Positions 22,349-38,884 of a stretch of 64,000 nt of DNA are shown in pieces. The stretch covers positions 5,280,001-5,344,000 of the forward strand of contig CBDCJO010000002.1 of NCBI GenBank assembly GCA_965217865.1, in the 5' to 3' direction. The position numbers and the translations under genes are program-made. The notes under the pieces are model-generated. The model had not been told where the DNA came from and did no database searches. It saw only the letters and a program-made list of their open reading frames with translations. Within the stretch, counting starts at the first letter, position 1, and each line of letters starts with the position of its first letter. The stretch is from Candidatus Latescibacterota bacterium (lineage in GTDB: Bacteria > Latescibacterota > UBA2968 > SICM01).

Positions 22349-22600
22349 GCATCAGCGGGCCACAGGCCCGTGATTCCTTGGCCCAGCCCAACGGGCTGGG
22401 TTTTGAATGTGGGCGCATCAGCGGGCCAACGGTCCGCGATCCGGACCAATCCCACACATACCTGTAGATGAATCAGGATGCGGGACAGGAATTGGGGGAT
22501 GTGAAATTATCGCGGCCCTTCAGGCCGCACGACGCTATTTTATTTCACTAACAGGGCGACTCGCCTGGGTTAAGGAACAACGCGCCGTTGGCGCTGAAAG
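22349..22600. mobile_element. Non-autonomous IS200-like palindromic element, copy 1
   Basis: Imperfect terminal inverted repeats (TCAGCGGGCC..GGCCCGTGATTCC / GGAACAACGCGCCGTTGGCGCTGA). The minus-strand centre reads PQFLSRILIHL plus a YVWD-type stub. Confidence 0.75.
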
Positions 22601-36912: not shown

Positions 36913-37164
36913 TCGAGGTGATGTAAGGGGAAATGCAAAGTGAAAAATGAAAAATGGAAATTGCAAAATTTACGACAGACCGGAGCTGAGCGCAACAATG
37001 ACCGCTATAGATTAGCAAATCATAAACCCTTAATCAATACATCCTGAGCCCTTCGACAAGCTCAGGATATACTCCGTTCCGCGTTTTTTGCGGAACGGAG
37101 TCGAAGGACGGGGAATGTCAGGGAGGAAAGTGCAGGAGGGCGAAGGTCGGAGGTTAGAGGCGAC

Positions 37165-37351
37165 GCATCAGCGGGCCAACGGTCCGCGATCCGGATCAAT
37201 CCCACACATACCGTAGATGAATCAGGATGCGGGACAGGAATTGGGGGATGGGAAATTATCGCGGCCCTTCAGGCCGCACGACGCTATTGCTTTCCAAGGG
37301 ACCCAGGGCGACTCGCCTGGGTTAAAGGACGACGCGCCGTTGGCGCTAAAA
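37165..37351. mobile_element. Non-autonomous IS200-like palindromic element, copy 3 (left end truncated)
   Basis: Minus strand 37249-37196 reads IPQFLSRILIHL-RYVWD*. Right end as in the other copies. Confidence 0.75.
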
Positions 37352-37439
37352 GAACGCCCTGTCTTTAGGCTCGGCTTTTCGATTTAGCTCCAAGGCCCCC
37401 GGGTGTCAACCGCGAAGACGGGGTCAACTATATTCCACT

Positions 37440-37465
37440 AAAAAAAAACCGAGGATACGCCTCGG
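37440..37465 (-). terminator. Intrinsic terminator (minus strand)
   Basis: CCGAGG-cgtat-CCTCGG followed by nine T on the minus strand. Confidence 0.85.
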
Positions 37466-37756
37466 AGGGGGATGAATCAAATATTATTTTACGGCCGCGA
37501 CTGTGGGGAGAGAATCCTCTACATCACAATCGCGACCGCTAAAAATTGTCCGGTGGCATAAACCTCCTATCACGGGGTTCATACGGAAAATGGTTCACGC
37601 CCGTGGTCCCTATGCACAAGCTTCGCGTCCACGCCCATCCACTTAATTTGGAATATTCAATTCCCGGTCAGATGAAGCGCTGACAATATATGGAGATGAT
37701 CCGAAGACGTTTTTGCTGAAGCGGACCATTTCGGACGCTTGTCGTAATCTTTCCCC
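37440..37756 (-). ncRNA. Candidate ~315-nt structured ncRNA of unknown family
   Basis: No ORF >=60 aa. Upstream TTGACT-17-TAACTT promoter, nested helices with G-U pairs that favour the minus strand, 5'/3' closing stem and U9 terminator. Confidence 0.55.
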
Positions 37757-37762
37757 GTTCAA

Positions 37763-37791
37763 AAGTTAATATATATCTGATGATAAGTCAA
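37763..37791 (-). promoter_or_regulatory. Putative sigma70 promoter for the candidate ncRNA
   Basis: Minus strand TTGACT (37791-37786), 17 nt, TAACTT (37768-37763). +1 would fall at the G of GGGGAAAG (37756). Confidence 0.5.
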
Positions 37792-37819: not shown

Positions 37820-38884
37820 TCACGCCATTCGCATCCGAACCCCTACATCGTCCAGCAGGTCCAGGGCGCGTTGCCACATTCCAGCCTGATCTCCCGGTTC
37901 AGCTGCGTTTACGATTGCTTTTAGGGCCTCTTCCGAATACGTCACACCGTGGAAAGCACCATAACGCCTGCTTAGTTCCCGGAGGCCTTTCAGAACACCC
38001 TCCTGGTCCAGGGGAAGCATCGCAACGGACCGGAAATATTCGGTTATTCCGGGATCCGTCTTCACGCATGCCTCGATTTCCCCTTGAACGGCCCCGGCGA
38101 TTATCCGGACCCAACCCGCCTGGAGACCCGCCTGAAAGAAGGAACCGGTGGCTTTTCCCTCCAGGTCGATGAGATCGGCCAGACTTTGACAAAAGAGAAT
38201 GATATCCCCATCCTCCTTAACTTCCCGGATGGCCTGAAACAGCCTTTCCTCCAGTTGGCCTCGATACTTAGTTCCCATCACCATCCCCCCGGGGTCCAGT
38301 CTTAATATCCGTTTCCCGGCCAGGAAACCGAGGTTTTTTCCCCGGATCATTTCACAGGCCAATCCGGAAACGAATCGGATGATCTCCGCCCGGCTCGAGG
38401 CCGTCAAAACCACGCTGTTGTGAGCTCGTCGGGCGAGTGCGCTGGCAATCTCCTGGATTTCCCAGTCGTGTCCAGGTGCCGGATCGCGGACATCCTCCGC
38501 GGCCAGGAACGACATGTCCTCTAAGAAGTGGTCGAGGAATGGGGTTTTGCTCTTTTCCCGGTTGCTCGGTTCATCGCTTTTCCCCCTTTCCGGTGTCTTC
38601 CAGAGGGTATTGGCTTCTACAACAACCGTTTCGCTAATGGCCTCGGCCTGACCGCGATCTCGGGCTGCCAGCCCGATCAATTCCTGACCGATCTCCTCTG
38701 CAACCCCGGGGTCGAGGTACCGGCTCCATTCCAGGATCACCTTGTCGGCCGGAGGATTCCTTTTACCCCGTTCAATATCCGATAAATATGCTGGCGAGAT
38801 CCCACAGGCCTCTGCGAAAGTCCCCTGCAGGATTTTTCGGTCGGTCCTGTACTCTCGAAGCCTTTTTCCGAAGGCACTATTCAT
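37820..38884 (-). CDS. XRE-family HTH fused to a degenerate ClpA/B/C NBD1 (AAA+) domain
   Basis: FGKRLREYR...CGISPAYLSDIERGKRNPP HTH, then SKTPFLD.F..D...A.....DP..G...EI, KRILRLD...GTKYRGQLEERL, Y..FHGV.YS.EAL and ALDLLDD.G.R, collinear with ClpC NBD1. Confidence 0.85.
   Translation of the reverse strand: MNSAFGKRLREYRTDRKILQGTFAEACGISPAYLSDIERGKRNPPADKVILEWSRYLDPGVAEEIGQELIGLAARDRGQAEAISETVVVEANTLWKTPERGKSDEPSNREKSKTPFLDHFLEDMSFLAAEDVRDPAPGHDWEIQEIASALARRAHNSVVLTASSRAEIIRFVSGLACEMIRGKNLGFLAGKRILRLDPGGMVMGTKYRGQLEERLFQAIREVKEDGDIILFCQSLADLIDLEGKATGSFFQAGLQAGWVRIIAGAVQGEIEACVKTDPGITEYFRSVAMLPLDQEGVLKGLRELSRRYGAFHGVTYSEEALKAIVNAAEPGDQAGMWQRALDLLDDVGVRMRMA

Follow-up and report, generated by a model that had tools for sequence, protein, structure and literature searches.

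A conserved structured RNA with an internal Shine–Dalgarno/Met-Pro-Pro/hairpin cassette across a class of Latescibacterota

The stretch of DNA analysed here (hereafter the window) comprises 64,000 nucleotides (nt) from a Candidatus Latescibacterota bacterium (assembly GCA_965217865.1, contig CBDCJO010000002.1, positions 5,280,001 to 5,344,000 of the forward strand), and on its minus strand, running from about 37756 to 37440, lies an element of 317 nt (~315 bases in round figures) that we are confident is an independent, conserved, structured RNA gene. The RNA family to which it belongs is class-wide, if not universal, and its best-conserved part, as judged from the aligned sequences, is a cassette in which a Shine–Dalgarno (SD) sequence precedes a start codon and two proline codons. 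The original prediction for this locus, made from the letters of the window, described the internal AGGAGG and a six-codon open reading frame (ORF) correctly and treated them as an aside. We tentatively propose that the cassette is a translated Met-Pro-Pro stall site that couples elongation capacity to the state of a hairpin or terminator, and that it is fused to a sensor-like 5′ domain. Large conserved bacterial RNAs without an assigned function are rare and have repeatedly been a source of new biology; the present one, the property of a whole little-studied class, joins a sensor-like fold to a three-codon frame whose sole constant is Pro-Pro, the hardest peptide bond to form.

The unit is independent in the window because it has a promoter-like site and a terminator of its own and is followed by a convergent gene. 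The promoter-like site (37763-37791, minus strand) consists of a -35 hexamer TTGACT (37791-37786), a 17-nt spacer and a -10 hexamer TAACTT (37768-37763), after which come 6 nt and then GGGGAAAGAUUA from 37756, so that the predicted 5′ end is the G at 37756, 7 nt past the -10 box, at the head of the leader GGGGAAAGAUUACGACAA (37739-37756). Both hexamers align with TTGACA-17-TACTTT of a homologue in genome G001, and TTGACA-type sites are found at a comparable distance 5′ of the core in most of 21 homologous loci; a consensus promoter scanner omitted TTGACT/TAACTT, because TAACTT matches the consensus at only three of six positions, and listed an overlapping TTAACT-17-TATATT instead. At the other end, the 3′ tail (37440-37490) carries an intrinsic terminator, CCGAGG-CGUAU-CCUCGG (37465-37449) with nine U residues (37448-37440), which a consensus scan recovered independently. 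The promoter hexamers, the start G, the AGGAGG, the MPPDNF* frame, the 15-bp hairpin discussed below and the terminator with its U-run all stand where the original prediction had placed them. The element is single-copy in the genome of the window (G000; 6.43 Mb in two contigs).

Folding of the minus strand reaches -111.4 kcal/mol (z -3.27), a value that none of 100 shuffled sequences attains, so that the folding comparison proposed with the prediction came out in its favour; for the plus strand z is -2.32, with 2 of 100 shuffles folding at least as well, and the G001 homologue folds at z -5.09. In the minimum free energy (MFE) structure of the window RNA the 5′ GGGGAAAGAUUA pairs with the 3′ UGAUUCAUCCCC (37479-37468), as had been foreseen, and this end pairing is absent from the conserved structure: only three pairs survive against G001, the 3′ tail of the window is lineage-specific, and the RNAs of family f2 end at the long hairpin. 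As for transcription, two metatranscriptome runs from different studies each hold one contig inside the element (37528-37748, the full length of a 220-nt contig, and 37614-37750), both of which stop 6-8 nt from the predicted 5′ end, while contigs from DNA runs continue past it; we regard this as a weak hint of transcription and of the position of the 5′ end. One of the two RNA-library runs also has contigs on the neighbouring gene, which encodes an XRE-Clp regulator.

Homologues were sought at increasing depth. BLASTN in 40 related genomes returned a single one, in G001, which represents another genus of the same family, and an exact-pattern scan of genome contigs likewise matched only the G001 contig; aligned from the -35 box as far as the terminator, the two RNAs have a mean column identity of 77%. 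From these two sequences a covariance model of the core (R1; 276 positions) was built, which matched 21 of the 132 genomes of the class at full length, mostly once per genome and with all four families represented, and none of 36 genomes sampled from ten other families of the phylum. A second model, covering the 3′ 122 positions and built from 19 sequences (R2), found the 3′ module in 56 of the 132 genomes: 29 of 31 in family f3, all 21 in genus g4, 7 of 22 in f4, 18 of 76 in f2 and, besides the window, 1 of 2 in f1. The homologues and covariation for which the original prediction had called are to be had, across four families.

The relatives share a consensus order of parts: a sigma-70-type promoter-like site, a leader of 20-45 nt, the 5′ domain, a linker that often reads GAGUUGnGGGCCG before the SD, the SD itself, the start codon, CCR CCN and a GC-rich hairpin. 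In the window the conserved 5′ domain (~140 nt; 37597-37738, minus strand) is delimited by RNAalifold, model R1 and covariation, and it has the shape of an irregular rod. It is closed by two helices, P1a, GCGUCCG (37738-37732) with CGGGCGU (37603-37597), and P1b, GGUCC (37727-37723) with GGACC (37609-37605), which are separated by a 4-nt A-rich bulge; beyond P1b the rod runs to two conserved terminal hairpins, GUCAG..CUGAC (37684-37667) and GGAAU..AUUCC (37664-37650). Both of these hairpins and the long hairpin of the cassette were among the internal helices first proposed and are conserved. Three others, ACAAGC-GUCC/GGAC-GCUUGU, UCCGCUU/AAGUGGA and CACGGG/CCCGUG, occur in neither the MFE nor the conserved structure and give way in both to P1a and P1b.

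Base-pair changes support this fold. RNAalifold on the window and G001 RNAs yields 79 pairs, 16 of them with a compensatory change. In an alignment of 14 sequences made with the covariance model, which is fitted to that model and leans towards the structure, 89.4% of cells are paired as against 30-45% after a shift of the partners by 1-3 columns, 50 of 65 pairs are changed on both sides (6 of 7 in the first closing helix of the 5′ domain and 4 of 5 in the second), and none of 500 shuffles reaches any of the observed measures. Two further observations are independent of the fit to the model. First, on a plain MAFFT alignment of 19 sequences the terminal hairpin shows double changes in 7 of 10 consensus pairs. 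Second, P1a recurs at one place as CCGUCCG/CGGACGG, CCAUCCG/CGGAUGG, CCGAUCG/CGGUCGU and CCGCUCG/CGAGUGG, and P1b as GGUCC/GGACC, GAUCU/GGAUC and GACCC/GGGUC.

The cassette of the window consists of the SD AGGAGG (37563-37568, minus strand), the mini-ORF AUG CCA CCG GAC AAU UUU UAG (MPPDNF*; 37539-37559) and a long GC-rich hairpin of 15 bp, GCGGUCGCGAUUGUG ... CACAGUCGCGGCCG (37491-37539), which appears in the MFE and RNAalifold structures alike and whose first pair lies at +21 from the A of AUG. Over all loci there were 62 candidate modules, from which 51 distinct ones with a perfect 8-bp helix, at least five G-C pairs and a helix start at +18 to +25 were kept; the 11 dropped were five second copies from g4 with an imperfect stem, L074, L078, L080, L082 and two chance matches. 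Among the 51, GGAGG stands 3-8 nt before the start codon without exception (4-5 nt in 45), 49 modules start with AUG and 2 with GUG (UUG occurs in L074, outside this set), and the helix begins at +20 to +22 in 47; of the 19 rows of the MAFFT alignment, 18 are free of gaps between AUG and the helix. Codon 2 is CCA (38) or CCG (13), codon 3 takes all four CCN forms (CCG 26, CCA 17, CCU 5, CCC 3), and codon 4 is mostly Asp (15), Ile (15, all in one genus) or Gly (8). CCR CCN is found in 51 of 51, a count that describes the family as defined, the filter having demanded CC at both codons. The substitutions confined to the start codon, the SD spacing and the wobble variation argue for decoding of the mini-ORF, while the remainder of the peptide, which after residue 3 follows the hairpin sequence and is unconserved in an ORF of 6 to more than 40 codons, fits a regulatory frame. 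In f2 and in G001 the hairpin itself is the terminator, with a U-run directly after it.

Some copies break the Pro-Pro rule, namely the paralogues L018 and L073 (GUG start, other codons), L079 (CCG CUG) and L111 (UCG CCG). Paralogues and second modules that lack CCRCC still keep the SD and an AUG or GUG, and in f4 and g4 there is a second module that has SD, AUG and hairpin but no proline codons. Genomes G041 (L018, L071), G064 (L033, L072, L073) and G067 (L074, L075) have the RNA or its 3′ module in duplicate or triplicate, and their additional copies tend to have lost Pro-Pro or to start with GUG or UUG.

In f1, in g9 and at the main copy of g4 the RNA is followed by a convergent gene, and where downstream genes are co-oriented they are diverse (AlaDH/PNT, an epimerase, an FAD oxidoreductase, a 2-hydroxyacid dehydrogenase). 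In G059 a ZTP riboswitch (RF01750, 53.3 bits; L016, 1849-1936, plus strand) lies between the homologous RNA and the 2-hydroxyacid dehydrogenase gene, a separation that we count towards the independence of the RNA. Two associations of the cassette with a downstream gene are conspicuous. Twelve of the 50 modules examined, all from f3 and spread over five genera, lie 40-120 nt before a CBS-pair gene of ~145 amino acids, and there is one further case besides. In g4 this CBS leader is a second copy in which the cassette is kept and the 5′ region differs; the locus (L064-L070) comprises a promoter-like site, a mini-ORF MLPKPDS*, the Met-Pro-Pro cassette, a terminator and the CBS-pair gene, with no recognisable copy of the 5′ domain. 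In four genomes of g15 (L101-L104) a leader of ~250 nt with the cassette stands before a gene for a one-domain ABC ATPase (ABC_tran); the leader holds one cassette, or two in tandem in G123, and a further terminator. The orthologous CBS gene of G000 was considered as a target in trans and rejected, its 5′ region being a plain promoter-like site with a short untranslated stretch and no cassette; a 6-nt loop match there, spotted by eye, is not conserved and was dropped.

No known RNA family accounts for the element. No Rfam 15 family reaches its gathering score anywhere in the window, the element has no overlapping match at E ≤ 10, its homologues at the loci of 10 relatives have none at E ≤ 0.1, and ARAGORN reports no tmRNA or tRNA in the window. 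The remark that hallmarks of tmRNA, RNase P and signal recognition particle (SRP) RNA are missing from the element agrees with the presence of all three elsewhere in G000 (198.5, 295 and 71.7 bits, respectively). The 6S model RF00013 has no match in G000 at E ≤ 1 and none across the class (132 genomes), a silence that is weak evidence because the model also misses 9 to 10 of 14 control genomes. The element and 6S RNA have in common that they are single-copy, free-standing and structured with a strong promoter, but the element differs in being branched and ~315 nt long and in having a ribosome-binding site and a mini-ORF. The idea of a divergent 6S RNA, for which a rod of ~180-200 nt with a large central bubble and a match to RF00013 was the yardstick, was set aside, as nothing positive speaks for it: there is no such match, and the fold is a rod with two terminal hairpins followed by the ribosome-binding site and a hairpin, with no central bubble. 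A literature search, which was not made by taxon and so does not establish absence from print, found no description of such an RNA, and in the main text of a survey of non-coding RNAs in 50 genomes the strings Planctomyc, Verrucomicrob and CBS do not occur (PMC11109978). With no Rfam match in the window or at 10 relatives' loci, covarying homologues and two RNA-library contigs inside the element, the prediction of a novel structured non-coding RNA on the minus strand is supported.

From this anatomy we infer translation of the mini-ORF, a stall at the prolines, coupling to the hairpin and whatever action there may be in trans. A ribosome would load on the mini-ORF and slow at Met-Pro-Pro followed by Asp, Gly, Asn, Glu or another residue, a step that would depend on elongation factor P (EF-P) and prolyl-tRNA; Pro-Pro-Asp, -Gly, -Asn and -Glu are motifs whose translation depends strongly on EF-P, and, given the size of its footprint, a ribosome stalled on Met-Pro-Pro would lie just in front of the hairpin. 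The held ribosome would sit before an intact hairpin and a ribosome passing through would have to melt it, so that the cassette would turn translation-elongation capacity into a closed or open hairpin. Where the hairpin is followed by a U-run (f2, G001) the outcome would be termination or read-through; in the window copy the 3′ part, ahead of the separate terminator, would refold. In f3 and g15 the same cassette would act as a leader before the CBS-pair gene or the ABC ATPase gene. Since the window copy has no downstream gene, its output would have to be the RNA itself, through its length, stability or conformation, working in trans by way of the 5′ domain, which probably binds a ligand or a protein. 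If the mini-ORF does sense stalling, the family would serve as a natural reporter of elongation capacity that is easy to test, and would be a case of a leader-peptide attenuator turned independent RNA gene, for which the cis relatives before CBS-pair and ABC ATPase genes are ready reporter systems.

A number of observations weigh against this proposal. Genus g13 has no match in 15 genomes, most of them near complete, even with laxer filters (best E 0.24), and the 18 matching genomes of f2 are few among 76, although many f2 assemblies are incomplete. Part of the covariation evidence, as said, comes from a model-fitted alignment. CCRCC is an imperfect complement of GGAGG, the MFE structure, as we read its pairing indices, pairs the two in several members, and codon 2 shows only CCA and CCG, so that the conservation of CCRCC could be structural and not coding; in the window and G001 it is an upstream C-run, and not CCRCC, that pairs with GGAGG, and the coding and the pairing readings of the cassette are not exclusive. 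The long hairpin of the window has no U-run, the separate terminator following 26 nt further 3′, and control of termination is thus not applicable to the window copy as such. The features of a leader-peptide attenuator that can be recognised are a short ORF with SD and start codon and conserved regulatory codons. A regulated gene in the same transcription unit is absent from the window, where the next gene is convergent and lies behind a dispersed repeat, and no conserved antiterminator pairing appears in the RNAalifold or covariance-model structures, there having been no dedicated search for one beyond the leader-linker test described below. Downstream genes that are diverse or convergent fit a simple cis-regulator poorly and leave the free-standing copies without a known output. 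Finally, RNA libraries can contain DNA, and for that reason the two contigs are no proof of transcription.

Three known systems resemble parts of the arrangement. The bmrB-bmrCD leader of Bacillus subtilis is a ribosome-dependent transcription attenuator with a leader peptide (PMC4191407). Common to both are a short ORF that has its own SD and directly precedes a terminator hairpin, the formation of which is decided by the progress of the ribosome (proposed, in our case), and, in g15, an ABC ATPase as downstream gene; unlike bmrB-bmrCD, the present element conserves only Met-Pro-Pro, has a covarying domain of ~140 nt before the ORF and no identified antiterminator, and in the window and many other copies lacks a downstream gene. 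The mgtA leader of Salmonella contains a proline-codon ORF, mgtL, the reading of which is EF-P-dependent (PMC6460261, PMC5021804). Here too a short ORF with proline codons goes with a long structured leader, and translation speed at the prolines feeds (or, for our RNA, would feed) into transcript fate, but there is no sequence or Rfam relationship, the phylum is another one and the present element is free-standing in most lineages. Termination in the mgtA leader is Rho-dependent, whereas the present element relies on an intrinsic hairpin whose distance is fixed. Lastly, rnTrpL of Sinorhizobium meliloti, an attenuator-derived small RNA that acts in trans and encodes the leader peptide peTrpL (PMC6614838, PMC7298713), is a precedent for a terminated attenuator RNA with a translated mini-ORF working in trans. 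It is still the leader of trpE(G), in contrast to the present RNA, which is detached in f1, f4 and parts of f2 and f3, is three times longer and has a large conserved fold.

A variant of our proposal, to which we assign a low probability, is a free-standing translated riboregulator, in which a ribosome on the Met-Pro-Pro site would set the conformation or length of a large, conserved RNA domain acting in trans on a protein or on mRNAs. Were this so, the RNA would sense EF-P, prolyl-tRNA or ribosome-targeting drugs, and would represent a new kind of global regulator in a class without a detectable 6S RNA.

Alternatively, and in our view rather improbably, the RNA may be a riboswitch-like sensor of a ligand, with the 5′ domain as an aptamer gating the SD and AUG, the mini-ORF and hairpin as expression platform, and the free-standing copies as orphan riboswitch small RNAs; this overlaps with the stall proposal and differs in what is sensed. 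The 5′ domain does show the large, conserved, covarying, aptamer-like fold expected of a riboswitch, directly 5′ of the ribosome-binding site. The linker of the window (37569-37596, minus strand) is predicted to sequester the SD and AUG (pairing probabilities 0.80 and 1.00), with a C-run at 37579-37576 opposite GGAGG in the MFE structure, although the conservation of this pairing is uncertain. The f3 RNAs, moreover, lie within the 5′ untranslated region of a CBS-pair gene, and CBS pairs typically bind adenosine-type ligands. A candidate leader-linker helix beside P1a occurs at one place in ~15 of 25 sequences with base pairs that differ between families (GCGGC/GCCGY, CGGUC/GRCCG, CGACC/GGUCG, UGGGC/GCCCA), but it lacks statistical support: the duplex energy is not significant against shuffled leaders (mean z -0.80; 2 of 35 at ≤0.05), nor is the longest helix (5.32 for own pairs versus 4.65 for cross-family pairs), and we keep it as a tentative feature. 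Against a riboswitch-like RNA, the downstream genes form no coherent set, neighbours varying by family and several being convergent, and many copies having none at all; in addition, the Met-Pro-Pro cassette of g4 and g15 occurs without the 5′ domain, and no known riboswitch family matches.

It is also conceivable, if doubtful, that the cassette is never translated and that the RNA is a decoy or sponge of the CsrB or 6S type acting in trans, its SD-AUG-CCRCC mimicking an initiation region, or folding on itself through GGAGG:CCRCC, so as to titrate a translational repressor or 30S subunits or to pair with mRNAs. A free-standing gene with strong promoter-like and terminator signals, present as one main copy per genome in a class in which RF00013 finds nothing, would suit such a role, as would the predicted pairing of GGAGG (probability at least 0.5) in 19 of 20 members. 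Yet the start-codon-specific substitutions and the wobble-type variation point to decoding, the same cassette is a 5′ leader in f3 and g15, the fold is not the 6S-like rod with central bubble, and the failure of RF00013 to match says little in view of the control genomes that it misses. The RNA has only one or two GGA-type sites, in which it differs from CsrB-type sponges.

That the product is a small peptide (MPPDNF in the window), with the RNA structure as a long 5′ untranslated region, is very unlikely: the SD, the start codon and the first three codons are conserved as such a gene would require, but only three residues are, and with a length of 6 to more than 40 codons and a remainder dictated by the hairpin there is no definable peptide family. 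Least likely of all, to the point of being scarcely credible, is the view put forward with the original prediction that the RNA serves the adjacent XRE-Clp regulator as target or partner in a protein and RNA module. In its favour, this one genome has the two side by side and in the same orientation; against it, the RNA possesses a promoter of its own, and the regulator gene is not beside the RNA at any of the 20 other loci examined. In G001 the gene 5′ of the RNA encodes an unrelated BFN-domain protein (BLASTP E 0.31; Pfam), and none of 42 neighbour ORFs scanned at the 20 other loci (the largest flanking ORFs) has HTH_3 or AAA_lid_9. The only neighbours common to the window and G001 are convergent GFO/IDH/MocA and xylose-isomerase-like genes.

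The XRE-Clp gene itself (37820-38884, minus strand), which lies outside the element, encodes a protein of 354 amino acids with an HTH_3 domain and a ClpA/ClpB D1-like AAA region (Pfam, NCBIfam). The HTH_3 domain is N-terminal and the rest matches positions 153-410 of the ClpA model (D1 AAA and lid), with neither the Clp N-domain nor a second AAA module; an ESM Atlas search with this protein gave AAA-family leads only, all at 0.84 or below. On the other side of the RNA, the space from the terminator to the convergent xylose-isomerase-like gene is taken up by a dispersed intergenic repeat of ~250 nt (36924-37409); G001 has no such gap. This repeat has 78 BLASTN matches in the genome, recurs in the window near 22414, 39171, 39909 and 42934, and reaches 10-100 times the baseline depth in two DNA runs.

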